The notes under the pieces are model-generated. The model was not told where the DNA came from, did not search any database, and saw only the letters and a program-made list of their open reading frames with translations. A program made the translations under genes and the position numbers. From Dictyostelium discoideum (lineage: Eukaryota), in contig CM000152.2 in NCBI GenBank assembly GCA_000004695.1, positions 5,952,001-6,016,000 of the forward strand: a stretch of DNA of 64,000 bases, in the 5' to 3' direction. Below are positions 4,300 to 60,946 of the stretch, piece after piece (position 1 is the first letter of the stretch; each line of letters begins with the position of its first letter).

Positions 4300-4760
4300 A
4301 AAATTAAAAAAAAGGGGAGTTTCTTTAATAAAAATGTAGATGATTATGTAAGCGATACCTCTCCGATGATAATATATCGTTGAGATACCACCCTCAAATG
4401 ATATGATGCCGTTGAGATCTCTCAAATGATAAGATATCGTTGTTTGGTTCACCATATGATATTACAGATTAAAGTAAATCTAAGGGCGGGGCCATTGTTT
4501 GGGTTGGTAATATAAAATGAATCAATACTGATCAAATTTTAGAGAACTAAAATTTTGAAAGTAGATGACCATATATTTAAAAATATTACCACAATGCAAG
4601 CAATTTTAGAAATCCAGATAAACTTCAAAAAAATCTTACTGAAACCAATTGTACCCGTTTTGCCAGGCTAAAAATGAATGGTTTGGAAAACTCATCGTAA
4701 TGATAAATCAAATTAAAGAATATCTAAATTTTCAAAAATAAACACCAAATGGTGCCATTT
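4300..4760. other. GC-normal non-coding island with three imperfect ~30-bp tandem units (ctc[c/a]gatgat..atcgttgagat) – candidate transposon remnant or ncRNA
   Basis: units gatgataatatatcgttgagatacc / aaatgatatgatgccgttgagatctc / aaatgataagatatcgttgtttgg followed by gggcggggccattgtttgggttgg; local GC far above the flanking A/T desert; no long ORF on either strand (the 68-aa minus ORF 4249-4455 is not coding-like). Confidence 0.3.
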
Positions 4761-5237
4761 AAAAAAAAAAAAAAATAAAAAAATAAAATAAAATAAAATT
4801 AAAAAAAGTGATTAATCCTGGTCAAAAAAAAAAAAAAAAAAATCTCTGTGTTTTACGAAAAAAAAAAATAAAAAAATAAAAAAATAATTTTATCTTTTTT
4901 TTTTTTTTACATTAATTAATTACATAAACACACACACCAACTCATATACATATACACATAAAAAGATGAATATAGAATAACAATAACACAATAAATAAAA
5001 TAATATAAAATATAATATAATATATGTAATAGTAATAATAATAATAATAAAAATAATAATAATAAAAAAAAAAATAAAAAAAAAAATAATAAAAAAAAAA
5101 AAAAATAAAAACATATATTAGTAAAAGTAAATTAATTGTATAATAAAATATAAATAAAATAATAAATAAAACTAAATTAAAATAATATTGTCAAATAGAG
5201 AGAGAAAAAAAAAGAAAGAACAATAATAATAATAAAT

Positions 5238-8200
5238 ATGGATGACGAAGATTATAGAAATTCTAAACAAATATTTTATTGGGGTAGAGGTGTTAATCAA
5301 GGTGATAAACATATCATTGAACCAATTGAAGTACCAGAATTAAATAAAAAGAATATTGTACAATTATCATGTGGATCAACACATACATTAGTATTATCAG
5401 ATTCTGGTGATCTATATAGTTGGGGATCATCCAATTCTAGTGGTCAATTAGGTCATGGTGATTCAAAAAATCAATATGGTAAACCTAAAAACATTAAAAA
5501 ATTCTCATTAATTAAAGCTTTATCTGGTGATTCAGTTATACAAGTTTCAACTGGTTTAGATTTTACATTTGTTTTAACTGACCAAGGTTCAATTTATAAT
5601 TGGGGTTCAAATATTGAAGGTCAATTAGCTTTAGGTCAACCTGTAAATAAAAATGAAAAAGAAAATAATATTAATAATAATACAACAAATAATAATAATA
5701 GCAACAGTAATAAAGAAGGAGGCGGAGGTGGTGGAGGTGGAGTTAAAGGTGGTAAAAATATATTATCACCAATACCGCAACCTTTAGATCAATTCTCTTC
5801 AGCATCTTCAACATCTTTATTAATTGATTCATTAACATCAACTTATTCAACTAGATCATATATAACATTATCAAATGAACAACAACAACAAAAAATACAG
5901 CAACAACAACAAAAATGGATAAATGGTAGAAAAAGTGTAAATAGTTCAACAATAACATCATCAAGTCCATTTAGTAGTGTTAGCAATTTTATAAAAGAAA
6001 TGGTTGGTAGTAATAATAATAATAATAATAATGAAAATGACGAAAATAATAATAATAATAATAATAATAACAATAATAATAATAAAAGAGGAGCAACATT
6101 AGGATCATTATCATCATCAACAACAACATCAAATAATTCAACACCAAACACAACAGCAAATAATAGTCCAAATTTATTATCATCATCATCATCATCATCA
6201 TCAGCAGCAACAAATAATGAATTAAAATTTAAACAAACTACACCAACTAAAGTATTATCATTTGGTGGTAGTAATGATAATAATTTTTTAGGTGGTGTAA
6301 TTAATAATGAATTACAAATGATGACAGATCAAATGAATTCAATAAAGATAATTCAAATATCATGTGGATCAAATCATATATTAGCATTGAGTGATCAATA
6401 TCATGTTTACAGTTGGGGTAGTGCTGAACATGGTAAACTCGGACATGGTGAAGATTATTCATTCGTTTCACAAAATCCACGTTGGATTAATTCACCTAAA
6501 AAGATTAAATCTCTACAAGAGAAAGGTGTGACAGTAATTAGTGTTTCAAGTGGTTATAGTCATTGTATGGCATTGACATTGGATTCAGGTATTTTAACAT
6601 GGGGTAAAGGCTCCGATGGTCAATTAGGTACAGGTTTCAGACATGATATTTGGTCACCATTTGAAATTAAACGTGTTATTGATAAAAATGAAAAGATTGT
6701 TCAAATTTGTTGTGGTTATTTTAATTCTTTCTTTATTACATTAGAAAAAAGAGAACTTTATCAATTTGGTTGGTCAATACCATTAGGTAAATCTGATGAT
6801 ATTTTAATACCAACAAAATTTATTTGGTTAAATCCTTTAAAAAATAAAAATAATAATAATGAAAATGAAGATAAAAAAGATGATGATGATGATAATGATG
6901 ATGAGGATGAAAATAATGATAATAGTAATAGAATTAAACAAATTTCAAGTGGTTATTCACATACATTAATTTTAAATGAAAATGGTGAATGTTTATCAAT
7001 TGGACAAGGTGAATTTGGTCAACTGGGTATTCCACTAGACCATTCATCAATTGATAAAGATTCATTTGTAAATTATCCAACAGTGATACCAGCATTATTA
7101 CCATACTTTGTTGAATCGGTGCAATGTGGTAGATGGCATTCGGTTGCAATAGTTTCAAATAGAAATTTAAGAGATCATTTAACAAATAGTAAGAAATTAA
7201 AAGAAAAACAAAAACAAAAACAACAAACAAATTTAGAGATTTTAGAAGAATTTGAATCAAATATTGAAGAGATTGAACGTATGATTACTGATGGTATTGA
7301 TGGTAGTAAAATTAATAAAAATAATATTTCTTCTTCTTTAAAAAGAAATAGTAAATCCATAATTAATAATAGTAATAGTAATAATAATAATAATAATAGA
7401 GGTAGTTTAGATGTATTTGATGGTTTATCAGTATCATTTCAATCATTTATTGATTTTGTAAATGATAAAAAGAATGAAGAACCATCACCTGATGCAATTA
7501 TAACTACAAATGATGAATTTGAAAAATCATTCTTTTTATTACAAAAAGATTATATTAGTAGTAAATCAAATGATTTAAATTGTAGTTTAAGTAGTTTAGA
7601 AGAAGGTGGTGGTTCTGGTGGAGGTTCCGGTGGTGGTAGTCGTAATGAAGAGAATGATAGTCATGAAGGTAATAATAATAATAATGGTGCAGGTGGTGGT
7701 TTTGAAACTATTAAAATTTCAAAACCATTTTATAGAGATTTAAATGATTTTCTATTCAAGAGTAAATCAACGTCACAATCATTATCAACAACTACAAGTT
7801 TACCATCGAATAATCCAATTTTAAATCAAATCGAATTATCAAGTGATGGTAGTGAAGAATCAACAGAGGAATTATTGATTCAAGTACTTTTAACTAAATT
7901 TTTACCAGATTTTGATAAAATGAAAACTAATAAAAAAGAATGGAGAGATCTATGGAGAAGAGGTTTTCCACCAACGATTCGTGGTATCATTTGGAAACGT
8001 GCAATTGGTAATAAATTGGAAATCAATGGTACGTTGTATCATGGTTTATTGGACCAGTTATCGGATTTACAAGATCGTTACAATAGGGATTTGGTATTGT
8101 TGGGTGAGGGATTCGAAGCTAATTTACCCCCAAATCTTCCAAAAGAGTATTCAACATTTATTAAAACATTCAATATGATAAAGGTTGATTTACCAAGAAC

Positions 8201-8822
8201 TTTCCCACAACTTCGTTTATTCAATCCTGCCGGCGCTTTACATGAACAACTACGTACAACTCTATTGCTATTCGCACTCTATACACCGCAAATTGGCTAT
8301 GTTCAAGGTATGTCCTATTTGGCGGCTGTTTTCTGTTTATTCATGGACCCATTCGAATCATTCGTTTACTTTACCAACCTATTGAATAATCATTTCTTTA
8401 ATAGTCTATTCAAAATGGATATTAGAGGTATAGTTAATCATGTAAAGATTTTCGACCTTTTATTCAAGAATCATGTTCCAAAACTTTATGATAAATTTCA
8501 ACAATTAGAATTATCAACTGAACATTTCCTATTGGAATGGATGATGACCTTATTCACAAAACAATTACCTCTAAATATTGTTTTTAGAATTTGGGATTCT
8601 TATTTCATGGAAGGTGAAGCTTTCATTTATTCAACAGCGATTGGTATCTTAAAACTTTGTAGAAACTTTATTATAGCTTCAAATTTTGAAGACTCTTTAG
8701 CAATCATAAAATCAACTCCTCATAATTTAAAAGAAGAAGATTTATTTGATTCAATTTCCGCCGTTCATATTCCAAAATTTATTAAAAAAATTATACTATT
8801 AATTAATAAAGATTTTATTTAA
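5238..8822 (+). CDS. RCC1-repeat (N-terminal) + TBC/Rab-GAP (C-terminal) domain protein, 1194 aa, single exon
   Basis: RCC1 blades: YSWGSSNSSGQLGHGD, YNWGSNIEGQLALG, YSWGSAEHGKLGHGE, LTWGKGSDGQLGTG, LSIGQGEFGQLG; TBC domain: RGIIWKRAIGN (RxxxW), IKVDLPRTFP (IxxDxxR arginine finger), YTPQIGYVQGMSYLAAV (YxQ glutamine finger); long poly-N/Q/S linkers. Confidence 0.9.
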   Translation: MDDEDYRNSKQIFYWGRGVNQGDKHIIEPIEVPELNKKNIVQLSCGSTHTLVLSDSGDLYSWGSSNSSGQLGHGDSKNQYGKPKNIKKFSLIKALSGDSVIQVSTGLDFTFVLTDQGSIYNWGSNIEGQLALGQPVNKNEKENNINNNTTNNNNSNSNKEGGGGGGGGVKGGKNILSPIPQPLDQFSSASSTSLLIDSLTSTYSTRSYITLSNEQQQQKIQQQQQKWINGRKSVNSSTITSSSPFSSVSNFIKEMVGSNNNNNNNENDENNNNNNNNNNNNNKRGATLGSLSSSTTTSNNSTPNTTANNSPNLLSSSSSSSSAATNNELKFKQTTPTKVLSFGGSNDNNFLGGVINNELQMMTDQMNSIKIIQISCGSNHILALSDQYHVYSWGSAEHGKLGHGEDYSFVSQNPRWINSPKKIKSLQEKGVTVISVSSGYSHCMALTLDSGILTWGKGSDGQLGTGFRHDIWSPFEIKRVIDKNEKIVQICCGYFNSFFITLEKRELYQFGWSIPLGKSDDILIPTKFIWLNPLKNKNNNNENEDKKDDDDDNDDEDENNDNSNRIKQISSGYSHTLILNENGECLSIGQGEFGQLGIPLDHSSIDKDSFVNYPTVIPALLPYFVESVQCGRWHSVAIVSNRNLRDHLTNSKKLKEKQKQKQQTNLEILEEFESNIEEIERMITDGIDGSKINKNNISSSLKRNSKSIINNSNSNNNNNNRGSLDVFDGLSVSFQSFIDFVNDKKNEEPSPDAIITTNDEFEKSFFLLQKDYISSKSNDLNCSLSSLEEGGGSGGGSGGGSRNEENDSHEGNNNNNGAGGGFETIKISKPFYRDLNDFLFKSKSTSQSLSTTTSLPSNNPILNQIELSSDGSEESTEELLIQVLLTKFLPDFDKMKTNKKEWRDLWRRGFPPTIRGIIWKRAIGNKLEINGTLYHGLLDQLSDLQDRYNRDLVLLGEGFEANLPPNLPKEYSTFIKTFNMIKVDLPRTFPQLRLFNPAGALHEQLRTTLLLFALYTPQIGYVQGMSYLAAVFCLFMDPFESFVYFTNLLNNHFFNSLFKMDIRGIVNHVKIFDLLFKNHVPKLYDKFQQLELSTEHFLLEWMMTLFTKQLPLNIVFRIWDSYFMEGEAFIYSTAIGILKLCRNFIIASNFEDSLAIIKSTPHNLKEEDLFDSISAVHIPKFIKKIILLINKDFI

Positions 8823-8961
8823 TTAATTAAAAAAACACATATTCCATAAAATAATTTACAATTTATTTTTTTTTATTTTTTTTTTTTTTATTTTAATAAT
8901 TATTAATTTTTAATTATATATGAATTATATGATTTGAAATTGTTTATTTTTTTTTATTTTA

Positions 8962-11900
8962 TTAATTATTTGATTTTATTTTATTATTTAAATTTATAAT
9001 TTTATAATTTTTTAATTCTAGATTTAAATGATTTGTTAAATAATTGTCATTTTCAAAACTAGCTATTAAATCTTTACAATTGTCTGGATCTAAGAAATAA
9101 TTAATAACGTGTAAACGATTTTTTTGAATTGCAACTGAACAAGCCTTTTTTAAAATTTTGAATTTTTTTGGGTAACTTTTTGCTATTAAATTACATAATT
9201 TAATATCGCCTCTTTTGAATGCTTCATTAAAAATATTATCCACACGAAAGTAATAAGTTTCAGATGATTTAATTCCAATTTTTTGATATTCATTGAAAAT
9301 TGAATTAATATAATCTTCTATTATATCTTGACCATTAAAAGAATTTTTAAAATCAACAAAGAGTGCTTCATATTGATAATTATAAGTACTAATTGGTATT
9401 TCTTGAAACATGATTCTATAATCTTTCTTTAAGTAACAACCTATTATTTGAATTTTATTTTCAGTTGGAGCTTCTAAAAAAGAATGAATATCACGTACTT
9501 TTCTAAGATAACAATAAAATTGAATTAAAAATGTTTCTTTAATAATTTTAATTTTTAAATTTTGTTCTTGGATTTTGTGTATCTCTGGATGAGTAATTTT
9601 ATCAAAATGATTTTCTAGCATATATTTTGCTTCACGATAAAAATCATAGTTTTCTTTTTGTTGTTTTGTTCTTTTTTTTATAAAAAAGAAATTTATACCA
9701 GTGATTTGAATTGAAAATTGTTCAACTAAATAATCAATAAAATCAAATCTATGTGATAGTAAACAACAATTTAATAATCTTTGAAGTAAAATCATTCTTT
9801 TATTCTTTTCAAGTGGTGAACAAATGAATTCAACGATTTGAATAAACTCTTGTAAATTCAATTTTAAACAAATTGAATTTAAAAGTGTTGGTTCAATGTT
9901 AAACCAAATCTTATCATATTTCGAATCATTTGAGAGTTTATTATAAAATTGATAAAAAAGATCAACTCTATTAATTTCTAAAAAGAAATTTAAATCATTG
10001 AAAATATTTTCAGATAATTTCAATGGTTCTGATTGATGTTGTTTAAGTGATAAATGCTCAATTAAATCAAAATAAATCTTTTCTAATGAATTATCTTGTT
10101 TAAATAAATATTTAAATGTGAAAACTTTTGTATTTAACCAATTTTTAATATCGTAAACTCCATTTGGCCCATAATTAATATTACAATCATAAACTCTGTT
10201 TCTATTATTTACTAATTTAATAACTTCAAGTATTCCAGGTCTAGACATAACATACTTTGTCAATTTAGTTGATCTATGATATAAATAAAAATAACACCGA
10301 TATAATGTATTTTCAATATGTATACCATTTGAAACGATATAATTGTGTACAAAATTAAGTTGTTTAATTTCAATATTACTAATACTTAAAAATAAATCAT
10401 ACATGTATTCTAAAATTGATTTGAAAATAGTTGTCATATTAGCTAATTTATACTCAGTAACACCTTGTTTCGATCTTAGTTGTTTTAAACCACTAACAAT
10501 ATCAACTATTTCTGTAATTATTGAAATATAATTTTCAATCAATTGACTATGGACATTGAATAGGTATGGTATATTATTTTGATAAATTATTCTATCTGAT
10601 CGTAAGTTTCCATCAGTGAATGGGGTTTCAAAATCAATGATTTGAATTAATCTTAGAAACAAAGTTGCTTTTCTATGTTCATTTTTATAATTAAAAAAAC
10701 TATTTGTTATAAAAGTAATTGGAAGAAATTTAAAATCTACTTTATCTATTACTTCTTGAATTGAAGTTGCATTTGATCTCCAAATTGATTCAATAAAACT
10801 TAATAAAAAATTAAAATGGCAAACATATTTTCCTTCTTTAATAAATCTTGATAATGATCCTAATTGATCAATTGTAAAACAATAATTTTCTGGTAATTTA
10901 AAATCATTTCCCAATTTAGTTATTCCTAATTCTAATGAATTCGCCAATTCAAATAAATCATCATTGCAAATTAAAATTGCAGAATAAAAAATTCTATTTT
11001 TAATTGATAGAATTGATAGAATTGACTTTTCATTACAACATTTTTCAATAACGCTCTTCGCAATTTCAGCTGAACTAAAAACGAATCTATCTTGAAATTT
11101 TGAAATAAATCTTAAACTAAACGGTCCAATTGCACCATTTGAAATCCAATCAATTGTTTCAAAACTATCAATTAATATATAATTTTCATTATATTGTAAA
11201 GTCATAATTGATGATAATAAAGAATTATAAGAAACTTGATTAAAATCAATTGTTTCAAATTCCTCTTCACAACACCAATTGAATAATGATAAATAATTAA
11301 TAAAAAATAGAATTTTATCATCATTAATTTTTGATTTTAAATTATTGGTCCAACTACAACCATCATGTTTGATATGATACTCTTCAATTGTTTCACCATA
11401 TTCTATCATATAATTTGAGTAAAAGTAATGAATTGATTTTGTTTCAATAATTACTAATTTTTGAAGTTCTTTTAAATTTTTATTATCTTTAATTATTTCA
11501 TTTATCTTTTCATTTATTTCATCTGGTATAAAAACTTTACCACAATCAAATGGACCTTTACCTCTATATTGAGTTTTAAAACAAAATAATAATTGATAAA
11601 ATGATTGTTTGAATTCTGGTTGAATCTTTTTAACACTTTTTTTTTCGAATAAACCATAATCTAACATTTTCACTTTTGTTTCAAATTCAATATTCCCTAC
11701 TAACATTTGTGGGAGTTCTAAGGTTGATATTAATTCTATTGAAAATAAATTTGCAAATTGTAAAATAAATTTTAATAATTCATTTTGATATGAAATATTT
11801 TTTAAAATTAATTCCAATGTAATTACTCTAATATTCTCTGGTAATTTAATATTTTTGAAATCTACTTCTTCTTCACCGCCGCTGACATTGATACAGGCAC

Positions 11901-49268: not shown

Positions 49269-50350
49269 TTTTTTTTTAGTTATTTAATTAATTATTATTT
49301 TTCCAATAGTCAGGTGGTACGATTGTACCATTTGAAAAGAATATGGTTAGATTTTTAGATAATTTTAGTGGTGGTAATCGTGGTGCAACAACAGCAGAAT
49401 ATTTTTTACAAAAAGGATATTATGTATTATTTTTATCAAGAAAGAATTCCCTTCAACCGTTTGTAAAGAATTTAATGTTACATGAGACCAACTTCTTTAC
49501 ATATTTAGGTATAAATGAAAATGATGGTGGTAATGGTAGAAATAATAATAATAATAATAATGAAAATGAATTTAAAAATGATAATGATACAATTTTATCA
49601 CCGTCGTTGGATGTTATAAAGAATCATGTTTGTATTGGTGAAGATTACTATTATGAAGTTTCAAAAGAGTATTTAAAATGGAAGAAATTCTGTGAAAATG
49701 GTAGTTTGGAGAGAGTTAATTTCGAAACTGTTGGTGAATATTTATATTTATTAAAAAACATTTCAACTGAGTTATCAATTTTAAAGAGTAATTTAATAGT
49801 GTATGCAGCGGCTGCAGTATCAGATTTCTATATACCATTGGACATGATGGCACAACATAAAATTCAATCAAAGAATCAGTCATTGACAATCACATTGGAT
49901 CCAGTGCCGAAAATGATTAAATTCTTAGTAGACAATTGGTGTCCAAATTCATACATTGTCACATTCAAATTAGAAACTGATCAAACCATTTTAAATGAAA
50001 AATGTTTAGCATCATTATCAAATTATAATCATCAATTAGTAATTGGTAATCTATTATCAGATTACAGAAATTGGGTAATATTTCATCAACAACAATCTAA
50101 GCCAATAATTGTTAAAAGAGAACTAACACAATTCCAAATTCAACAACAACAAAAATTATCACCATCATCTTCTTATTCTTTAAAAAATGATAATCATGAT
50201 CATCATCATGATCATCATCATGATCATCATGACCATGATCATCAACATCAACAAAAACAACCAATTGGTGTTGATCATCCAATTGAATATAATATTGGTG
50301 AAAAATTAATTGAATTACATAATGAATTTATTAATAAAAATAGTAATTAA
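49079..50350 (+). CDS. ppcs: phosphopantothenate--cysteine ligase (PPCS, CoA biosynthesis), 2 exons, ~389 aa, with His/Asp-rich insertion
   Basis: Exon 1 49079-49207 (MTEVEENFF…NAKVILIT|GTAAGC), exon 2 49310-50350: [47 protein letters not shown] matches PPCS core (VTSGGTxVPLE…[20 protein letters not shown]…GYxVLFL); C-terminal region has [20 protein letters not shown] tract. Confidence 0.85.
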
Positions 50351-50358
50351 TTTTTTTA

Positions 50359-50604
50359 TTATATTTTTTTATTTAAATAATTTGATTGATTTGAAATACT
50401 TTGCATTTGAATACAAACACCTTTGAATTCATTTAAAAGTGATTCCATTCTTTTAATTTTTCTATTATTTTGACTTGCAATTGTAATATTATCTAAAAAT
50501 AATTGGAAATAATTATTATTAATTTGAAGTAAAATTTCATTCTCTTTTTCATAATGTGATATTGTTGATTCAATTTTTAATAAAATTTCATTAAATGGTT
50601 TTGG

Positions 50605-50664
<60 letters not shown>

Positions 50665-50949
50665 TAAATTTACTACAAAACTTGTACATTGAGAAAAGAT
50701 TTGATTTTGGTAATTTCTTAATAATTTAATATATGGGTGAGTAGATTCACAGTCAATTTCAAGTTCACTATCATTTGAATCATCTTGATTTAAAAATTCT
50801 ATATTATTTGTTGGTGGAAAGTCATAATCAGCATCATTATCTTGAAAGAGCATTTGAGAGGATTCATTAACAGAAGAAGCAATCTCTAAGTATTTAGTAT
50901 TTGAAATATAATAAAGTGAGTTTTCGTTATTTAAATTATTAAAATTCAT
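50359..50949 (-). CDS. hypothetical protein (196 aa) with internal poly-Asn tract; convergent with PPCS (stops 8 bp apart)
   Basis: uninterrupted ORF with varied composition outside the (ATT)n-encoded N25 tract; no recognisable domain. Confidence 0.65.
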
Positions 50950-51475
50950 TTTATTTTATTTTATTATTTTATTTTATTTTATTTTTTTTTTTGGATATTT
51001 ATTTAAAATTTAAAAAATATTTATCGTTGGATGAATGATTATTATTTTTTTTTTTTTCATTGGTGTTTACATAGTTTTTTTTTTTTTATTTGGGTGGTGT
51101 CAGTATTTATTTTTTGGGGTGTCAGTGAAAGAATATATTTTTTCATAGAAATATCTTTTTTTTTTTTTGATATTTTTTTTATTTTTCACTGACACTTTAT
51201 AGGAAAAAAAAAGATATTCCAATATTTTGAATAGGAAAATGAAGAACATATTTATTATAAATCAGATAAAATTATAATTTAAATATTCATTAATTTTTAT
51301 TTTTAAAGAGTATATTTATGGGAAAAAATAAAAAAAAAAAAATAATTAAAATAAAAAAAAAAAAACAAAATATTTTTTTTTTTTTTTCAAGAGCAATAAA
51401 AATGATGTTTTTTTCATAAATTTGTGAAAACAAACGCAAAAAAAAAAGCGTAAAATTTCATTTTAATTAATAAAT

Positions 51476-53040
<1,565 letters not shown>

Positions 53041-53173
53041 ATAAATCTATTTTTATTTAAAACTATTAATTAGTTTAGTTAAGATTTTTATTTACAATTT
53101 AATAATAATATTATTATTATTATTATTTTAATTTCTAAGAAATAGAGAAGGTGAAAAAAAAAAAAAAAAGGTT

Positions 53174-53638
53174 TTACATATAATGGTCATTATCAAAACC
53201 TGGTGGAGTAAAATCATCTCTATCTGGCATTCCTCTACCCCTACCACTTGGTGGAATTCCACCAGTTGGTGGACCAAATGGATCGAATCTAGCACCTGGA
53301 GGAACAGCACCTCTTGGTAAACGTTGTTCATAACCAGGTAAACCTGTACCATATGGATTATTTCCTCCACCATATGGATTATGAATATTGCCAAAACCTG
53401 GATGATCACGACCTACTTGACCACCTTGTCCTGGAAACACTCCAGGTCCTCTTGTTTGGCCTGGATAAAATGGTGGATTATGACCAAATACAGGGAATCC
53501 AGGTGGATAAAGATCAGGATCTTGATCACCACCACCATTAAACCCTCCTCTATATCTATTACTACCCCTTTGTGGATCACCAACTCTAAGAGGATCATCA
53601 TCTTCAAAATCACGTTGATTATTTGGTGGTCTTCTTTC

Positions 53639-53670
<32 letters not shown>

Positions 53671-54260
53671 GCTGTGGTTGTTGTTCTTGCATATTAGTTG
53701 GTATTCTAACTAAACCAGGAACTAATGGATTTATTATACTATATTCAAAAATTGAAATAAATTCTTTTAAATTTAATAATAAATTTTCAACATCCTTATA
53801 TTCTGTATTTTTAACTAATTTATCAGTACTATTATTTTTATTATTATTTTATGAATGTTAAAAATAAAATATTAGTATTAATACTCAGTATTCATTCATG
53901 AATTATTATTATTATTATTATTTTATAAACTTACTCAACATCTAGTGTATGGATTTTATCATTTTTATCTTTTATCATTGCATTTACTAATAAGAGATTA
54001 CCCATTCTTAAACATTTGAAATGAAAAGTTTTACCAGGTGCCAAATGATTAATTAAATCTAATGTATATGAATCTGCATTGGAATTCCAATTCGTTGGTA
54101 CAACTTTATCATTTGTTTCTTCTCCTCCTTCTAATTTGAATTCGTGTTTATTTAAAATTAATGCTATTACTAATACTGCAACATCATATTTATCCCTAAT
54201 CCCAATTGAATTATCATTACCAATTAATGATTTTAAACGTTCTTTTATGAAATTTTCCAT
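53174..54260 (-). CDS. proteasome inhibitor PI31 (PSMF1) homologue, 2 exons, ~326 aa
   Basis: Exon 1 54260-53935 (FP-domain-like N-terminus MENFIKERLKSLIG…; donor GTAAGT, phase 2), 106-nt intron, exon 2 53828-53174: …polyQ…Pro/Gly-rich tail with RGAVPPGARFDPFGPPTGGIPPSGRG…PPGFDNDHYM*, matching the human PI31 C-terminal region (…PPGARFDPFGP…PPPGYDDMYL). Confidence 0.85.
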
Positions 54261-54689
54261 TATTTATTTGTTTATTATTATTATTATTTAATTTATTTAT
54301 TATGTGCGACTTCACAAAAACAAACATGTTTTAATTAAAAAAAAAAAAAATTAAAAAAAATTAAAAAAAATTAAAATAAAATAAAATAAAAAAAAAAATA
54401 AAAAAATTAAAATAAAATAATTGAATTAAATTTAATTTAAATAGCCAAATTAGGGAAAAAAAAAGATATTTATAATAAATGGCCTTCTCCCTTTATAAAA
54501 TTAGAATCTTTTCCTTTCCATTTTAATAAAAAAAAAAAAATAATAAAAAAAATAAAAAAAAATTACAACTAGGTTAACAAAATAAAAGTTAACTCGAACC
54601 ACAATGCTCAAAAATATCATCTTGGAACTGGTGTTTTCTTCCAATTTTAAAACTGATTTTTAAAACTTCATTTTTCAATTCTAATGATT

Positions 54690-54745
54690 TAATTGAATTT
54701 GATGAAATTCTATTTAAAACATGGTAATTAATTTTTATTATTAAT
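54690..54745. repeat. dispersed repeat copy A (…gatttaattgaatttgatgaaattctatttaaaacatgg) upstream of the 55141 gene
   Basis: ~80% identical over ~60-90 bp to 55975-56035 (…gattcaattttgaatttgatgaaaatgctatttaagacattg). Confidence 0.5.
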
Positions 54746-55025
54746 TTTAATTAATAAAAAAAAAAAAAAAAAAAATTTAAAATATCAGCTTTAAAACTTG
54801 TTTTTCAAGACCACACAATAATATAACATTATTTATCAAATTTGTAACATCTACCACTTCTAATTTTTTTTTTGCTTAACATAATGAAGATTGTAAAAAA
54901 CCAAAATTTTTTTTTTTTTTTTTTTTCCCACATATGAATTTGTTGTTCATTGTGGAAAAAATTTTACCTTTTTCGAAATTAAATCCAACCACCTTAACAA
55001 TTTACACCCAATTACATTTTGAGAG

Positions 55026-55077
<52 letters not shown>

Positions 55078-55140
55078 CAATTTTACAAGTTTTTTTTTTT
55101 TTTTTTTATCAAATTAATAATTATTAAAAAAAAAAAAAAA

Positions 55141-55848
55141 ATGAATGTAATTTGTATGGGATCAAGTGGGTTTGTTGGAAAAGAAGTTTTAAAACAATTA
55201 ATTAAAAATGAAAATATAAATAAAATAACATGTATTGTTAGAAAACCATTAACAGATATTGAAGATAATGTAAAAACTAATTTTATAATTCATAATGATT
55301 TTTTAAATTATTCAGAAGAATTTTTAAAAGAATTAGTTCAATCTCATCAAGCATGTATTTGGACAATTGGTGGTAGAAGAAGTCAATTTCCAACAAAAGA
55401 AGAATACGAAAAAGTTTCAATTGACTATACAATTACATTTGCAAATGGTATTGTAAATGCACTAAAATCAAAAACTCAACCACCAACTCCATTCACATTC
55501 ATTTATTGTAGTGGTATGGGTGCAAATGAAAAAGCAAATGAATCAATTATAAATAGAATTGAAATTGAAACTAGGGTTGTTAAAGGTAAAGTTGAAAGAT
55601 CATTAACAGAAATTCAAAATTCAAATTCAAATATTTTTAATCTTTTAATATTCAGACCAGGTGGTATTACTGAAAATCAAAATAATTTTATTCAATGGTT
55701 ATTATCATCTTTCACTGTTGATTTATCACATTTATCAAATGTAATAATTAATAAATTAATTAATTCAAATCAAAATACAACATCAACAACAACAACAACC
55801 ACAACAACAACAATATTTTTTAATAAAGATATTTATAATTATAAATAA
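55141..55848 (+). CDS. NAD(P)-binding Rossmann-fold protein (atypical short-chain dehydrogenase/epimerase family), 235 aa
   Basis: N-terminal GxxGxxG: MNVICMGSSGFVGKEVLKQLIKN; single exon; C-terminal poly-Thr. Confidence 0.8.
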   Translation: MNVICMGSSGFVGKEVLKQLIKNENINKITCIVRKPLTDIEDNVKTNFIIHNDFLNYSEEFLKELVQSHQACIWTIGGRRSQFPTKEEYEKVSIDYTITFANGIVNALKSKTQPPTPFTFIYCSGMGANEKANESIINRIEIETRVVKGKVERSLTEIQNSNSNIFNLLIFRPGGITENQNNFIQWLLSSFTVDLSHLSNVIINKLINSNQNTTSTTTTTTTTTIFFNKDIYNYK

Positions 55849-55974
55849 TTAATTAAATCTGGAAAAAATAAAATTTTTTTTTGTTTTATAATGGGGTACC
55901 TCTTCTAAAAATTTTCTTTATTTTTTGAATTTTCAATTATTTATTTTTTAAAATTTAATATTGATTTTTCATAT

Positions 55975-56035
55975 TTTAATATTAATGATTCAATTTTGAA
56001 TTTGATGAAAATGCTATTTAAGACATTGAAATTGT
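55975..56035. repeat. dispersed repeat copy A' downstream of the 55141 gene
   Basis: see 54690-54745. Confidence 0.5.
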
Positions 56036-56199
56036 TTTTTATTATACATTTTAAATATTACTAAAATAAATTAGAATTTAAATTTTATTTTTATTTTTAT
56101 TTTTATAATAATAAAAATATATTACCAAATCTTAATAGAAATTAATAAATAAATTTTATTTTAAATATAAAAAAACAATTCTAATTTAATTTAAATATA

Positions 56200-57460
56200 A
56201 ATGAGTGTGCTATAGAATGTATCTAAAAATTAGGTTTAACACACACAAAAACGATAAAAATCTTTAACATTGTCGTAAGAACTCATTGATTGTAATGCTG
56301 TTACAATTTAAATACATGGTAACAATTTAAATACATAGTATCTTCAACTTCTTTATTTTGCGTTGAAATTCGGGTGGAATATCTTTAGATTGTTCATTTT
56401 TAAAGGGTGTTGGAAATGGTTGTAAGGAATCTTTTAATTCTTCGTTTTCTCTTTTAATAACAATAGTTTAAATTTCTTTGTCTGGTGATTTATTAAAATT
56501 TGATTCTTTTTCTTTTTCTTTTTCATTTTCTTCAATACCATCAGTTACATTTTTGAACATTTTATTTGCAGCCTTTTTTTGTTTTTAATGGGTTTAACTA
56601 AACCTAAATCAAAAAATATAAACTTTTCTTCATTGATATATTTATATTTGCCAACATGTCTTAATGATAAACTGAATGTAAATAACCTGATTCTGAAAAT
56701 TGTTTACAAGCTTCCATTAATCTTTAAAACCATCTTTGTTGTAATCATCAGAGGTTTATAAAATGGCATCAATAAACAAGGCTCACCATTAATTAAAACC
56801 TAGGTTTTGATTCCCCAAATATCAGACCAAGGTTTACTTTCTTCATTAATAACCGATATATCTTTGTTTTTGACGAAAAACTTGATTACAAATGCTTTGG
56901 CTTGTCTGTTAATTGCTCACCATGCTTTACCATCAATACCTGAACCTAAATCTTAAATTAAATAAATCTTTTTATTATTTTTCTCGTCTTCAATATCTTC
57001 AATTACATATGATATTGATACTGTATTATAATTATTATTATCTTTATTTTCATAATCAGTAAAACCAATTTTATATATTTTTCTGCTCAATCATATGGTC
57101 AACTCTTTGATTACATGCTCTTTCTCAAACATATGCACAGTGTATCCAATATTTTTGGTATAAGCTGCTACTTTGAAACTAGAATCGCATGGTTGGATGG
57201 TAACAAATTCGTTGAAACTGAAAAACTTGAAGAATTGTCAAGTATGCCCATATCAAAATTAAATTCACTATTCCTTAATCAAACTCAAGTTCCATTAAGA
57301 CTCAAACTGGATGATACAAATAAATCAGTTTCATGTCATCAATTCTGTAAAACCAATAATATTAGTAGATTCTTATTTGTATCACCAAAAATAACTTACA
57401 CTGATCGTACCTCAAATATCAATTTTTTTTATTTTATTTTTTCAAAAATTTAAAAGAATT
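56200..57460. pseudogene. decayed coding-like block (near-normal GC, multiple frame-broken ORF pieces on both strands) – candidate pseudogene / element remnant
   Basis: minus strand reads aaaATGTTCAAAAATGTAACTGATGGTATTGAAGAAAATGAAAAAG… MFKNVTDGIEENEKEKEKESNFNKSPDKEI*TIVIKRENEELKDSLQPFPTPFKNEQSKDIPPEFQRKIKKLKILCI* with in-frame stops; upstream pieces …GSGIDGKAW*AINRQAKAFVIKFFVKNKDISVINEESKPWSDIWGIKT*…; plus-strand ORFs 56579-56761 and 57115-57453 are short and unconnected. Confidence 0.3.
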
Positions 57461-57689
57461 TTGCCAAATTAAGTAATTAATTTTTTATTTTTCAGTTAAA
57501 ATTAAAAAAGATAAGGAAAAATAAAAAAAATAAAAAATAAAATAATTTAAGAAGATAAACGAAAAAAAAAATAAATAAATAAATAAATAAAATAAATAAA
57601 TAAATATATAGATTTAAAAAAAAAAAAAAAAAAATTTTCAAAAGTGCCGAGGCAGCGTAGGTGTTAAGGTATTCATTTTATTATAGACT

Positions 57690-57880
57690 ATTTAAGGTAT
57701 TACTGAAAATCAAAATAAATTAATTCAATGGTTTCTATCATCTTTCAGTATTGATTTATCACCATGTAATAATTGAACAATTAATTAATTCACAAAAAGT
57801 AAATCAAAAACAACAACAACAATGATATTTTTAATAAAAATATTTATAATTATAATTAATTAAATCTGGAAAAATAAAAA
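57690..57880 (+). pseudogene. duplicated, decayed fragment of the 3' end (last ~60 codons + 3' flank) of the 55141-55848 gene
   Basis: ggtattactgaaaatcaaaataaattaattcaatggtttctatcatctttcagtattgatttatcacc…aaatcaaaaacaacaacaacaatgatatttttaataaaaatatttataattataattaattaaatctggaaaaataaaa vs 55662-55880 ggtggtattactgaaaatcaaaataattttattcaatggttattatcatctttcactgttgatttatcaca…ttaattaaatctggaaaaaataaaa; indels break the frame. Confidence 0.6.
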
Positions 57881-58034
57881 AAAAAAAAAAAAAAAATATT
57901 TATAACTTGAGGTCCCAAAAAATAAAAAAAAAATTAAAAATGAAATAAAATTAAAAATAAAAATAAAAGAAAATTGAAAAAAAAAAAAAAAAAAAAAACG
58001 AGTCACTTTTTTTTTTGTCGGTTTTTTCATTTTT

Positions 58035-58074
<40 letters not shown>

Positions 58075-58117
58075 TAATTATTATTGCAACATATATATTT
58101 TTTCAAAAAAAATAAAT

Positions 58118-60946
58118 ATGGTAAAAGCATATTTAAAGTTTGTTCAAGATAAAGTTTTTGGGTTAATATCAACTAGTAATTCTATATTGGATGGTAGTGG
58201 TAAATTAGCAATTACAGGATGTGGTGAACGTATAAGTATTTGGGATTTACGTAAACAAGTGTTAAATCAATCATTATATGAAGAAGATATAAAAGCAGAA
58301 GTTACAAATGTATGTTTAAGTAAGGATGGTGCATTATTAGCATCTGGCTATTCAGATGGGTCAATTAGAATTTGGTCAATGTCAGATTACCAATTACAAG
58401 CAGTTTTCAATGGACATAGAGGATCGGTTACAACAATGACATTCAATCGTTTAGGTAATATTTTAGTATCTGGAAGTAAAGATACAGAAGTGATAGTATG
58501 GGATATTATAACGGAATCAGGTCTATTCCGTTTACGTGGTCATCGTGATCAAATTACCTCTGTTAAATTATTAGAACGTTCAAATCATTTAATTACAAGT
58601 TCAAAAGATGGATTTATAAAGATTTGGGATACCGAAACTCAACATTGTATTCAAACAATTGTTGGACATCGTAATCCAATTTGGGGTATCGATGTGAACC
58701 CCGATGAAACTCGTTTATGTTCATGTACAAGTGATAATCAAATTCGTTTTTGGCGTATACCATCAAATGAAAGACAAAGAGAGGATGGAAGTGGTATTGA
58801 ACCAAAATTCATTGTAAATACACCAATCAATAGTGCAGTTATAATTCCAGATGAAATTAATGAAGATGGTAGTAAAAAAGAAAATAGTAACAATAGTAAT
58901 AATAATGATATAGATGATTTAGAAATTATTTCAGAAGAAGAATTTGCAAAATATTATGGTTCAATAACTGTTAAAGCAGAATCTGTATCTGGTGTACGTT
59001 TTGATCCAACAAATAAAATTTTAGCAGTCCAATCAACTGGTAAATTTGTTGATCTTTTTAAAATTACACATTATGATACAATGAAACTTGAAGAGATTTC
59101 AATAGTTGAAGAGATGAGACATCGTCAAACTATTAAAACCTCATCAAAGGTTAGATTCTTTTCATTTGGTAATGATATTAAACATTGGAATAAATTTGTA
59201 ATAACTTTAGCAGGTAATTCATTGGAAGCTTATGAAATTAAAGAAAAGGAACAAGGTGGTGGAGCATTTGAAGTTTCATCAACATTGGATCAAGCAGGTC
59301 ATCGTTCTGATATTCGTTCATTATCTTTATCATCAAATGATCAAATGTTGGTTTCAACAAGTTCAGAATCAGTTAAAGTTTGGAATATGAAATCATTATC
59401 ATGCATTCGTTCAATTGCATGTGATTATGGTTTGTGTACTGTATTTGCACCAGGTAATTTACATGTTATCGTTGGTACTAAAACTGGAACAATTGAAGTG
59501 TTTGAATTGGCATCGGCAGCACGTGTTGCCTCGATTAAAGCTCATGAAGGTTCAGTTTGGTCATTGGTTTTGACACCTGATCTTCGTGGTGTAACAAGTG
59601 GTGGTGCAGATAAGTTGGTTAAATTTTGGGATTTTGAATTAATTGCAAGTCAAGAGAATTCAAAACATAAGGTTCTCAATCTTTCACTCACAAAAACACT
59701 TAAAGTAGAATCCGATGTTTTAGCCTTGAAATATAGTGCCGATAATAAATTTTTAGCAGTTTCATTATTAGATAATACCGTTAAGATTTTCTACACCGAT
59801 ACAGTTAAATTCCATCTTTCATTATATGGTCATAAGTTACCAGTGATGTGTTTGGATATCAGTGACGATAGTACATTGATTATTACAGGTTCAGCCGATA
59901 AAAACATTAAAATCTGGGGTTTAGATTATGGTGATTGTCATAAATCATTCTTTGCTCATGACGATTCAATCATGCAAGTTTCATTCATACCATCAACTCA
60001 TCATTTCATATCAGCAAGTAAAGATAAACGTATAAAGTATTGGGATGCCGATAAATTTGAACATATTCAAACCATTGAAGCTCATCATGGTGAAGTTTGG
60101 TCACTTGCAATGGGATCGGTTGGTGATTTCTTTATAAGTGGTAGTCATGATCGTTCAATTAGAATTTTCAATCAAACTGAAACTCCAATTTTCGTTGAAT
60201 CAGATCGTCAAAGAGAAATGGAACAAACTTGGGAAGCCACATTAGAGGATGACACTCGTATGCGTACAAAAGAAATGTTGGAAGAGAATGCAGCAGCTGG
60301 TAAACAAACTCTCGAAACCATTATGGCTGGTGAAGATATTTTAGATGCAATTGAACTTTGCGTTCAAGAGAAATTCAAAATTGATGAATATGAAAAACTA
60401 TTGAAAACCACTAAAAATCAAGATGAAATCCCACTCTATCAACCAAACATTATCATGTTGGGTCTCTCTCCATCTGAATACCTTTGGAATAGAATCAACA
60501 GAATTAGACCAAGTGATTTAGAAGAAGCCCTTAGAGTATTACCCTTCTCTGTAATGAGAACACTTTTCGAATATTTCAATCTATGGGTCGATCAATCTGG
60601 AAAGAGTGTTGAATTCATTTTCAAATGTTCTTTCTTTTTAATTCAAACTCATCAAAATCAATTATCAGTTTCAACAGAATTCATACCAATTTTACAACAT
60701 TTAAATACATCAATTAAAAATCGTTTACAAAAAGAAAGATTCACATTAGGTTTTAATAGATCTGCATTATCATTTGTTAAACGTGAAATTGAAATTAATC
60801 AACAATATAAATTTTTTGATTCTGATTTATATTTAAATAAAAATAATAAAAATAATAAAGATAAAGATAGTAATAATAATAAGAAAGATAATAAGAAAGA
60901 TAATAAGAAAGATAATGAAAAATCATTAAAAAGAAATAGAAAATAA
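58118..60946 (+). CDS. wdr3: WD repeat-containing protein 3 (WDR3 / UTP12, SSU processome), 942 aa, single exon
   Basis: True start is ATG at 58118 (MVKAYLKFVQDKVFGLIS…, cf. human WDR3 MGLTKQYLRYVASAVFGVIG…); the tabulated ORF start 57974 is read-through of poly(A)/poly(T). ~13 WD repeats (…GSIRIWSM…, …TEVIVWDI…, …GFIKIWDT…, …KNIKIWGL…) and C-terminal Utp12-type helical domain; length equals human WDR3 (943 aa). Confidence 0.9.
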   Translation: MVKAYLKFVQDKVFGLISTSNSILDGSGKLAITGCGERISIWDLRKQVLNQSLYEEDIKAEVTNVCLSKDGALLASGYSDGSIRIWSMSDYQLQAVFNGHRGSVTTMTFNRLGNILVSGSKDTEVIVWDIITESGLFRLRGHRDQITSVKLLERSNHLITSSKDGFIKIWDTETQHCIQTIVGHRNPIWGIDVNPDETRLCSCTSDNQIRFWRIPSNERQREDGSGIEPKFIVNTPINSAVIIPDEINEDGSKKENSNNSNNNDIDDLEIISEEEFAKYYGSITVKAESVSGVRFDPTNKILAVQSTGKFVDLFKITHYDTMKLEEISIVEEMRHRQTIKTSSKVRFFSFGNDIKHWNKFVITLAGNSLEAYEIKEKEQGGGAFEVSSTLDQAGHRSDIRSLSLSSNDQMLVSTSSESVKVWNMKSLSCIRSIACDYGLCTVFAPGNLHVIVGTKTGTIEVFELASAARVASIKAHEGSVWSLVLTPDLRGVTSGGADKLVKFWDFELIASQENSKHKVLNLSLTKTLKVESDVLALKYSADNKFLAVSLLDNTVKIFYTDTVKFHLSLYGHKLPVMCLDISDDSTLIITGSADKNIKIWGLDYGDCHKSFFAHDDSIMQVSFIPSTHHFISASKDKRIKYWDADKFEHIQTIEAHHGEVWSLAMGSVGDFFISGSHDRSIRIFNQTETPIFVESDRQREMEQTWEATLEDDTRMRTKEMLEENAAAGKQTLETIMAGEDILDAIELCVQEKFKIDEYEKLLKTTKNQDEIPLYQPNIIMLGLSPSEYLWNRINRIRPSDLEEALRVLPFSVMRTLFEYFNLWVDQSGKSVEFIFKCSFFLIQTHQNQLSVSTEFIPILQHLNTSIKNRLQKERFTLGFNRSALSFVKREIEINQQYKFFDSDLYLNKNNKNNKDKDSNNNKKDNKKDNKKDNEKSLKRNRK

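Follow-up and report, generated by a model that had tools for sequence, protein, structure and literature searches.

Next to an intact Rossmann-fold gene on chromosome 3 of Dictyostelium discoideum AX4, short sequences recur around a coding-like block that is interrupted by stops, and the question arises how such an arrangement was formed. The initial annotation of the window (the whole stretch of 64,000 nucleotides analysed here) offered two answers, a duplication followed by decay or an insertion carrying gene fragments. We compared the locus with those of other Dictyostelium genomes, and its present structure very probably reflects an insertion that postdates the separation from D. citrinum, followed by lineage-specific decay.

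Resident genes and direct repeats

The insert sits between two housekeeping genes. The left-hand one encodes a 235-aa protein and represents DDB_G0282619, as shown by its exact match to AX4 XP_640158.1 / Q54S81. Its assignment to PF13460 (NAD_binding_10) is marginal, with 28.3 bits lying above the gathering score of 27.2; this domain is carried by four of the five homologues listed for DDB_G0282619, and the N-terminus of the protein, MNVICMGSSGFVGKE, fits the GxxGxxG motif. The gene is single-copy and conserved across five Dictyostelium genomes, the orthologues being 78–92% identical. The annotated proteins included orthologues only, and the full second paralogue that had been considered was not found among them. 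A PI31-like gene (− strand) lies divergent to DDB_G0282619 (+ strand), and the promoter region in between holds the A1 sequence, while the right-hand neighbour of the insert is a WD40 gene starting at 58129. For RNA genes, an Rfam scan of 54000–58300 gave only a sub-threshold snoR125 (20 bits, gathering score 100).

Searches by blastn (+1/−1) without a low-complexity filter gave A+T-rich noise and were discarded in favour of the stricter Smith–Waterman alignment with empirical nulls. The repeat of about 60–90 bp reported on either side of the Rossmann gene is real and longer than noted at first: 54645–54766 and 55946–56070 are 77% identical over 125 bp (E=2e-19), and their Smith–Waterman score of 102 exceeds the maximum of 80 obtained in 554 comparisons of either element with A+T-rich tiles of the window. 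Higher similarities appear when A2 is compared with A1 of related genomes. Thus, 55901–56046 is 90% identical (128–129/143) to the A1 orthologue at ~4589–4755 of L007 and L008, two divergent “D. discoideum” assemblies, and 55930–56150 is 81% identical (173/213) to A1 at 7510–7740 of L004 (D. cf. discoideum). The template of A2 is a sequence of ~250 bp located 1.2 kb upstream in direct orientation, and the end of B1 passes into the start of A2 directly, with no filler. Owing to a 165-bp indel, L004 retains only the first part of A2, and in L007/L008 this copy is deleted.

The copy of the last ~60 codons and 3' flank of the gene, described as frame-broken, was recovered as well: 55663–55873 and 57696–57879 are 79% identical over 211 bp (E=2e-45), and no other non-self match of the region in the 64-kb window is as strong. 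Neither the A and B repeats nor the coding-like block between them are low-complexity sequence. Beyond 55873, up to about 55900/57917, the B copies show weak similarity only. The frame of B2 is broken by indels of 8, 1, 13, 5 and 4 bp, and the window and L004 agree exactly at its left edge, where …CTATTTAA meets GGTATTACTG.

Table 1. Predicted features of the rearranged region (window positions)
Feature	Position	Strand	Remarks
A1, original A copy	54645..54766	.	Partly diverged in the AX4 lineage
DDB_G0282619	55141..55848	+	Intact ORF, NAD(P)-binding (Rossmann)
B1	55663..55900	.	Putative left target-duplication copy: last 62 codons of DDB_G0282619 and 3' flank
A2	55901..56150	.	A copy directly adjoining the B1 end; earlier-seen core at 55946-56070
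3' flank of DUF5898 copy	56205..56400	-	Homologous to the paralogue 3' flank at L006; colinear with L004
DUF5898 pseudogene, C-terminal (kinase-like) half	56400..57076	-	Residues ~223-415 of P0001 (DUF5898 protein)
Inverted DUF5898 fragment	57077..57418	+	Residues ~63-177 of P0001; tblastn frame +1, 64% identity
A+T-rich filler, right inversion junction	57419..57489	.	About 72 bp
5' flank remnant of DUF5898 copy, A+T-rich	57490..57695	-	Plus about 50-65 bp (GTGCCGAGGCAGCGTAGGTGTTAAGG…) before B2
B2	57696..57917	.	Frame-broken; putative right target-duplication copy, contiguous with ancestral spacer and WD40 gene

The decayed DUF5898 copy and its candidate source

The G+C content of 56200–57460 is 23–32.5% (200-bp windows) against 8.5–17% in the spacers on either side, and its coding-like appearance, with ORF pieces on both strands, proved to be that of DUF5898-derived DNA in two opposed fragments. 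The block is not a decayed second copy of the Rossmann gene; its matches to PF19250 and to DUF5898 paralogues show it to derive from an unrelated gene. The conceptual translation of the − strand scores 69.6 bits against PF19250 (cut-off 28.9) and covers model positions 1–109 of 109, and the block matches intact D. discoideum DUF5898 proteins with E=3e-45. DUF5898 proteins consist of a PD-(D/E)XK nuclease-like domain and a kinase-like domain. They are found in Dictyostelia and Capsaspora, and Pfam places the family (PF19250) in the PKinase clan (PMC9758233). The block resembles these proteins in its end-to-end match to the model, but differs from them in that the promoter and the nuclease-motif region are lost and the gene is split by an inversion.

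The two fragments of this single gene are oppositely oriented, head-to-head, and meet at about 57075. In the C-terminal half, conserved residues are replaced by stops at 56955 (S), 56919 (L) and 56802 (L), and there are at least three frameshifts; the inverted fragment is stop-free and contains a 112-aa ORF at 57115–57453. The G-loop-like, VIKF, HSDLSLRH and FFDLG motifs are kept, and the segment upstream of residue 63 with the D…E-x-K motif is deleted in the AX4 copy. An intact ORF with both the PD-(D/E)XK-like and the kinase-like domain, as in members of 400–600 aa, is absent from the block. Because of the stops, frameshifts, inversion, deletions and missing D…E-x-K segment, the block is a DUF5898 pseudogene and not a functional member of the family. 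Nor is it an intact spliced gene that had been overlooked. The pseudogene pieces diverge by 6–13%, near the non-coding rate of about 10%, and the intact gene by 1.9%. The codon-position and synonymous/non-synonymous test had no power here, as the intact control gene was equally without third-position excess, and the AlphaFold2 model of the full-length paralogue P0002 (6-sequence alignment) was unusable, with a mean pLDDT of 37.

A DUF5898 paralogue is located at a distance of 191.6 kb on this chromosome, and the insert has the opposite orientation to it. It is the closest source found among the three paralogue loci inspected, and the true donor may be another gene. The nucleotide identity of 56400–57076 is 83% to the paralogue at L006 and 85% to the colinear segment 8835–9735 of L004. 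Homology with the paralogue runs from at least 160–240 bp upstream of the start codon to about 250 bp past the stop. On the 5' side, L004 10640–10798 and L008 6772–6999 match the paralogue flank (L006 ~4759–5001); on the 3' side, 56205–56400 and L006 share motifs, for example AGATTTTTATC(T/G)TTTTTGTGTG, about 250 bp past the paralogue stop codon. Since the homology extends into both flanks, the DUF5898 copy is not a retrocopy. Its divergence from the paralogue (12–20%) is of the same order as that between B1 and B2 (9–17%). For the ~50–65 bp before B2 and the ~55 bp after A2 no template was identified, and the 67 bp just before B2 gave no match to DDB_G0282619. A stretch of 72–94 bp upstream of the paralogues, 98–100% identical between loci, turned out to be a (CAA)n microsatellite.

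The locus in related genomes

In D. citrinum, D. firmibasis and D. dimigraforme, the NAD gene is followed directly by the WD40 gene, with a short spacer, a single B and no DUF5898 sequence. The D. cf. discoideum genome carries the same insert, in which the DUF5898 gene is colinear and nearly intact, with one frameshift and two ORFs of 352 and 165 aa, and L007/L008 have a 1.1-kb deletion in the insert. Because B2 is joined to the ancestral spacer and WD40 gene, B1 is joined to DDB_G0282619 and the outgroups possess a single B, the sequences identify B2 as a presumed duplication of the target site and not as cargo of the insertion. Thus, from the two answers offered at the outset, local duplication, decay and insertion of foreign coding DNA are all retained, while the transport of the gene fragment with the insert is not. 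At six sites, all four B copies of the discoideum group differ jointly from those of the three outgroups, and these shared derived states suggest that B1 and B2 separated once D. citrinum had branched off; the window and L004 also have B1-specific and B2-specific changes in common.

The segment 57077–57418 matches L004 10368→10024 in reverse with 91% identity, and L007 and L008 hold its counterpart in the ancestral − orientation. This 342-bp inversion, seen in two assemblies (the window and GCA_054883475.1) and absent from L004, L007 and L008, appears specific to the AX4-type lineage and later than the insertion, and it accounts for the ORF pieces on both strands. Deletions accompany both inversion junctions, which are mapped to a few bases. 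At the right one, 57419–57489 replaces about 280 bp of L004 (10368–10646), a stretch comprising the proximal promoter along with the initial ~75 codons. The left one has a 2-bp filler, and any microhomology there would not exceed a few bases.

Origin of the insert

We suggest that, in the ancestral order, the PI31-like gene and DDB_G0282619 were followed by a spacer of about 155–270 bp and then by the WD40 gene. The insertion would fall between the separation of D. citrinum and the divergence of the AX4-type, D. cf. discoideum and L007/L008 lineages. A copy made at the DNA level, comprising a DUF5898 gene, ~250 bp of its 3' flank and no less than 160–240 bp of its 5' flank, would have landed immediately behind the DDB_G0282619 stop codon, preceded by A2 (~250 bp), the whole being bracketed by a ~215–240-bp target duplication (B1/B2). 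DDB_G0282619 would have stayed intact because the 3' end of the target was duplicated, with a dead 3' fragment created at the same time. The inserted gene would then have been lost independently in each lineage: in the AX4-type one by the 342-bp inversion with junction deletions (promoter and first ~75 codons including the nuclease motif), stops and frameshifts, in L007/L008 by the 1.1-kb deletion, and in L004 by the single frameshift. This is our best explanation and, taken as a whole, a probable one.

The structure may have been made by one replicative or repair event of the FoSTeS/MMBIR or SDSA type, which would have proceeded through B, back to A, to the paralogue and again to the start of B. 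Multiple templates, as in FoSTeS/MMBIR, are recognisable: A (1.2 kb upstream, direct), DUF5898 (192 kb, inverted) and B (direct). Microhomology (2–15 bp) is not readable at the original junctions because these are A+T-rich and 10–20% diverged. From the architecture alone, we give a single event with serial template switches an even chance.

The same architecture could have been reached in two steps, by tandem duplication of a ~1.3-kb unit from A to the end of B and a later insertion of the DUF5898 copy into the second unit, from which about 650 bp would go missing, namely the remaining promoter sequence and codons 1–174 of DDB_G0282619. The unchanged order and orientation of the recurring A and B agree with this scheme, as does the filler-free contact of B1 with A2, which is what a tandem-duplication join would give. 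However, only the ends of the unit recur (A ~250 bp, B ~240 bp) with the ~650-bp interior absent, which is not the pattern of a simple tandem duplication. Between A2 and B2, the search for promoter or 5' coding remnants of DDB_G0282619 gave no score above the null, and such remnants are missing from all four insert-bearing genomes. The scheme also demands two events on the same short branch, a duplication and a subsequent insertion that deletes exactly the interior, and a strain in the intermediate state is not present among those available. We consider the two-step origin possible rather than probable.

It is very unlikely that DUF5898 genes are semi-autonomous selfish genes, whose own PD-(D/E)XK nuclease domain would break the chromosome, with repair of the break copying the gene and its flanks into new sites; if this were true, the locus would represent a fossil of a homing-like jump in a eukaryote. 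The same low probability covers a lesser variant, in which a newborn 117-aa chimera is expressed: the AX4 inversion might have put the stop-free fragment on the strand of B2, giving a spliceable chimeric ORF of this length.

An insertion after the D. citrinum split is also preferred to a scheme in which the insert is ancestral and D. citrinum, D. firmibasis and D. dimigraforme lost it precisely by B1/B2 recombination. Such an exchange between 240-bp direct repeats would leave a scarless single B, and deletions did occur at the locus; yet several independent precise losses would be required, and the six derived states common to B1 and B2 against all three outgroups make this highly improbable.

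Foreign coding DNA at a new site between direct repeats could suggest gene capture by a transposable element (DNA transposon, Helitron, Pack-MULE-like or retroelement) or a processed pseudogene. Nevertheless, the only inverted repeats are poly-A/poly-T low-complexity ones, the ~240-bp target repeat far exceeds the target-site duplications of transposons, and the domain search revealed no transposase, integrase or reverse transcriptase. At the three paralogue loci, no flanking repeats were detected. The donor homology includes promoter-side and 3' flanks and is not limited to mRNA, and the ~240-bp repeat is not the short target-site duplication of a processed pseudogene. The TRE elements of Dictyostelium target tRNA genes, but no tRNA gene adjoins the insert or lies near it or at the paralogue loci, the only one in the window being at 29778. 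Capture or retroposition is therefore a highly implausible origin.

That the inverted arrangement is an assembly artefact, as could be feared for A+T-rich and repeat-rich Dictyostelium DNA that is hard to assemble, is scarcely credible, since the inversion junctions are unique sequence and the window is colinear, over 50127–60878, with GCA_054883475.1, an independent chromosome-level assembly, at 99.7% identity. L005 may represent the same laboratory-strain lineage as the window, and if so, it confirms the assembly and not a species-wide inversion.

Discussion

Rearrangements with templated insertions of the FoSTeS/MMBIR type are described, in the accounts cited, for human CNVs and cancer genomes (PMC8421209, PMC7025897, PMC6902434). 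As in the cases presented there, segments templated in cis, from distances of 1.2 kb and 192 kb, have been joined at a single site, one of them reversed, and the target is duplicated on both sides with the resident gene left intact. In contrast to these human and cancer cases, the Dictyostelium event is an old one, fixed in the germline of an amoebozoan and followed by 10–20% divergence.

The DUF5898 copy also resembles unprocessed (duplicated) pseudogenes arising from dispersed segmental duplication, as it was copied at the DNA level with non-coding flanks and has evolved about as fast as neutral sequence, accumulating stops, frameshifts and deletions. It differs from the usual pseudogenes of this class by the internal 342-bp inversion, which placed its halves head-to-head, and by the existence of three independent structural alleles of the dead gene in sister lineages. 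The locus represents no new kind of system, being a case of ordinary but well-resolved genome evolution. It provides a dated natural example of a gene copy inserted beside an essential-looking gene without damage to it, and of one redundant copy disabled by different lesions in sister lineages. Its three structural alleles may serve to mark lineages of the D. discoideum species complex.

The locus also poses a problem for annotation, with gene models placed on the remains of a pseudogene. In one public annotation, the inverted fragment is spliced to B2 to give a 117-aa “gene”, and in other assemblies models of 102 aa and 130 aa are called on the remains of the insert.

Results

The sequence of the window has a G+C content of 20.8%, and the 235-aa product of its NAD(P)-binding (Rossmann) gene has the exact sequence of the Dictyostelium discoideum AX4 protein DDB_G0282619 (XP_640158.1/Q54S81). 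Since ORF calling had assumed bacterial ORFs, gene structures were verified against annotated orthologous loci; nearby genes encode a Methyltransf_28 (PF02636) protein, presumably of the MidA/NDUFAF7 type, a PI31-like protein and a WD40 protein. The homologue search of annotated proteins yielded no paralogue of DDB_G0282619, the existence of which had been considered in the initial annotation, and returned only orthologues in four species: D. cf. discoideum, D. citrinum, D. firmibasis and D. dimigraforme. The gene and its orthologue in D. cf. discoideum (locus L004) differ at 1.9% of sites without a third-position excess, and the synonymous sites of DDB_G0282619 are unusually conserved compared with adjacent non-coding DNA (about 10%), which could result from codon or composition constraint or from inflation of the spacer alignment. 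The divergent promoter region that DDB_G0282619 shares with the PI31-like gene turns over rapidly, being 365 to 1185 bp long across species.

Features of the locus and their counterparts
Feature	Window	Orientation	Counterpart	Identity
Methyltransf_28 gene, last exon (ORF)	51862-53010			
PI31-like gene	53174-54260	−		
Divergent promoter region	54647-55016		L004 7213-7840; L007/L008 ~4450-4755	
A1	54645-54766			
DDB_G0282619	55141-55848	+	L004 8001-8699	
B1	55663-55900		L004 8503-8749	
A2	55901-56150			
GTGTG…CACAC segment	56205-56250		L006 ~6560-6610	
DUF5898 residues ~223-390 (tblastn of intact proteins)	57072→56581	−		
DUF5898 residues ~63-177 (tblastn of intact proteins)	57079→57417	+		
Alignment to L004	56160-57056	colinear		85%
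Alignment to L004	57077-57418	inverted	L004 10368→10024	91%
Alignment to L004	57496-58400	colinear		
B2	57696-57917		L004 10821-11046	
WD40 gene	start 58129			

The flanking repeat pair and the frame-broken 3' copy of the gene reported at first reading are real and are more than low-complexity matches: BLASTN with 54500-58000 as the query against the whole window gave two matches exceeding the poly-A/T background. The B repeat (55663-55873 vs 57696-57879) has 79% identity over 211 bp (E=2e-45), several indels breaking the frame of B2 relative to B1, while the A repeat (54645-54766 vs 55946-56070) has 77% over 125 bp (E=2e-19) and scores 102 against a maximum of 80 in an empirical null of A+T-rich tiles from the same window. 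From 55901 onward, A2 aligns with A1 and the sequence immediately before it in L007 and L008, two divergent assemblies labelled D. discoideum (128-129 of 143 positions), and up to 56150 it matches A1 of L004 (173 of 213). By these alignments, A2 is ~250 bp long and directly abuts the end of B1, and the leftmost ~300 bp of inserted sequence are not filler. A2 is 81% identical to the window's own A1 and 90% to A1 of L007/L008; between the window and L004, there is 1 difference in 188 sites of B1 and there are 15 in 157 of B2. Nothing similar to the DDB_G0282619 promoter or its first 174 codons was found between A2 and B2.

The block 56200-57460 does have the coding-like G+C noted initially, and on the − strand it forms a long protein-like frame with several frame changes, in which the stop codons at 56955, 56919 and 56802 correspond to S, L and L of intact relatives. 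Translated conceptually, the block scores 69.6 bits against Pfam DUF5898 (cut-off 28.9) and is 53-63% identical to intact D. discoideum DUF5898 proteins. The ORF pieces seen on both strands are two DUF5898 pieces which join head-to-head at about 57075. This copy is dead and lacks the nuclease motif.

The Pfam DUF5898 model covers only a 109-residue C-terminal piece and is placed within the PKinase clan (PMC9758233). An exhaustive HMMER search gave 607 cluster representatives, with homologues from dictyostelids, Capsaspora and environmental assemblies (eukaryotic). A 49-member profile matched solved protein kinases (E≈2e-5); 14 of the 49 members matched the Kdo/WaaP kinase family and 17, in the N-terminal region, HSDR_N (PD-(D/E)XK nuclease domain). 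The N-terminal region has the nuclease-like consensus RPDIW…GVVEVKKP…GQxxDY (protein P0002, alignment A8), and the C-terminal protein-kinase-like core shows little or no variation at K436, E449, H508 and D531. Together, the HSDR_N and kinase matches identify DUF5898 as a nuclease-like and kinase-like fusion whose two-domain architecture is conserved.

In D. citrinum, D. firmibasis and D. dimigraforme, the WD40 gene directly follows the NAD gene (spacers of 272, 267 and 154 bp), with one B copy and without DUF5898 sequence at the locus. D. cf. discoideum carries the insert as in the window, its DUF5898 gene being colinear on the − strand, with ORFs of 352 and 165 aa and one frameshift between them. 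The gene model annotated here in D. cf. discoideum is 476 aa long and spans 1456 bp, 25 nt above the coding need, its tiny “intron” evidently bridging this 1-bp frameshift (L004 9527-9570); either this copy is starting to decay too or the frameshift is a homopolymer error of the assembly. L007 and L008, about 8-10% diverged, represent a third allele, in which a common ~1.1-kb deletion (L004 ~8808-9938) removed A2 and the DUF5898 C-terminal half, leaving B2 in place and the N-terminal part in its ancestral orientation.

Discussion

We conclude that the locus contains a lineage-specific dispersed duplicate which was inserted with local templated duplications and then pseudogenised by inversion, and that it cleanly illustrates known processes and does not represent a new kind of element. 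The observations of the initial annotation hold, and its interpretation (partial duplication and decay, or insertion of gene fragments) is partly right: local duplication, decay and an insertion of coding DNA stand, and the block is a DUF5898 gene copy inactivated by inversion.

At six sites of the B alignment, all four discoideum-group B copies are united against the three outgroups, further B1-specific or B2-specific changes are common to the window and L004, and the left edge of B2 is the same to the base in both. These data indicate a single duplication and insertion, later than the split from D. citrinum but earlier than the divergence of the window, L004, L007 and L008 lineages. An ancestral insert followed by repeated precise loss in the outgroups is disfavoured by the six sites.

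Among the paralogues examined, the closest is P0001 (locus L006), 191.6 kb away on the same chromosome in opposite orientation, with 80-83% nucleotide identity over coding sequence. Homology runs about 250 bp beyond the stop and at least 160-240 bp upstream of the start codon; since both flanks are included, the insert was copied from DNA, and a retrocopy is ruled out. Counting mismatches only, the insert diverges from the paralogue by 12-20%, similar in magnitude to the 9-17% between B1 and B2, as would be compatible with one event. A ~30-bp segment of the 3' flank, with GTGTG…CACAC at its borders, has opposite orientations in the insert and the paralogue (CTATAGAATGTATCTAAAAATTAGGTTTAA vs its reverse complement) and may represent a micro-inversion between short inverted repeats. 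At the P0001 locus, the presumed donor, the paralogue of the AX4-type strain has an internal deletion of about 390 bp (L006 ~5112-5119 vs 6112-6504 of L009, the paralogue locus of another strain), which suggests that in this lineage decay of the family is not confined to a single locus; the proteins are 415 aa (P0001), 497 aa (P0003/DDB_G0282827) and 567 aa (P0002, another strain) long.

The insert reads B1, A2, the reversed DUF5898 locus, ~50-65 bp without an assigned template, and B2. One replicative or repair event with serial template switches could have built it from several cis templates, one of them inverted, with duplication of the target. From this architecture, we give roughly even chances to such a single event of the FoSTeS/MMBIR class. 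Tandem duplication of a 1.3-kb A→B unit with later replacement of its interior would give the same end product, and we regard this two-step history as somewhat less likely than not; the insert junctions are too A+T-rich and diverged for microhomology scoring. Transposon capture is without support: the insert has no terminal inverted repeats beyond low complexity, no element-type domains in the domain search and no adjacent tRNA gene, and the three paralogue loci have no flanking repeats.

After insertion, the AX4-type lineage underwent inversion of a 342-bp segment. At the left junction the sequence is CCAATTTTAT/AT/ATTTTTCTGC, with about 44 codons lost; at the right junction, 72 bp of A+T-rich filler replaces about 280 bp, namely the proximal promoter and the first ~75 codons, among them those of the nuclease motif. 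L005, an independent chromosome-level D. discoideum assembly, is colinear with the window and 99.7% identical, which rules out an assembly artefact as the source of the inversion. The AX4 inversion and L007/L008 deletion breakpoints are each no more than about 35-80 bp from the end of an (AAT)n tract, ~200 bp long in L004, which hints at a fragile site. This expansion (L004 9682-9859) lies inside the DUF5898 ORF and encodes about 60 asparagines, where the window (~57040-57050) has only NNN. Divergence from L004 is 6-13% for the pieces of the pseudogene, which is near the value for non-coding DNA (about 10%) and far exceeds that of the intact NAD gene (1.9%); a codon-position test was without power.

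The exact 112-aa ORF 57115-57453 has no identical entry in the protein collection searched. The public annotation of GCA_054883475.1 contains a spliced 117-aa gene (window 57133-57406 and 57697-57776; L005 6993-7636), which probably reflects an artefact of gene prediction. Exon 1 consists of the inverted DUF5898 fragment and exon 2 of B2 in the original NAD-gene frame (…TDR/ITENQNKLIQWFLSSFSIDLSPCNN-stop), with the acceptor site exactly at the B2 boundary, and the model can be considered a candidate chimeric ORF made by the inversion.
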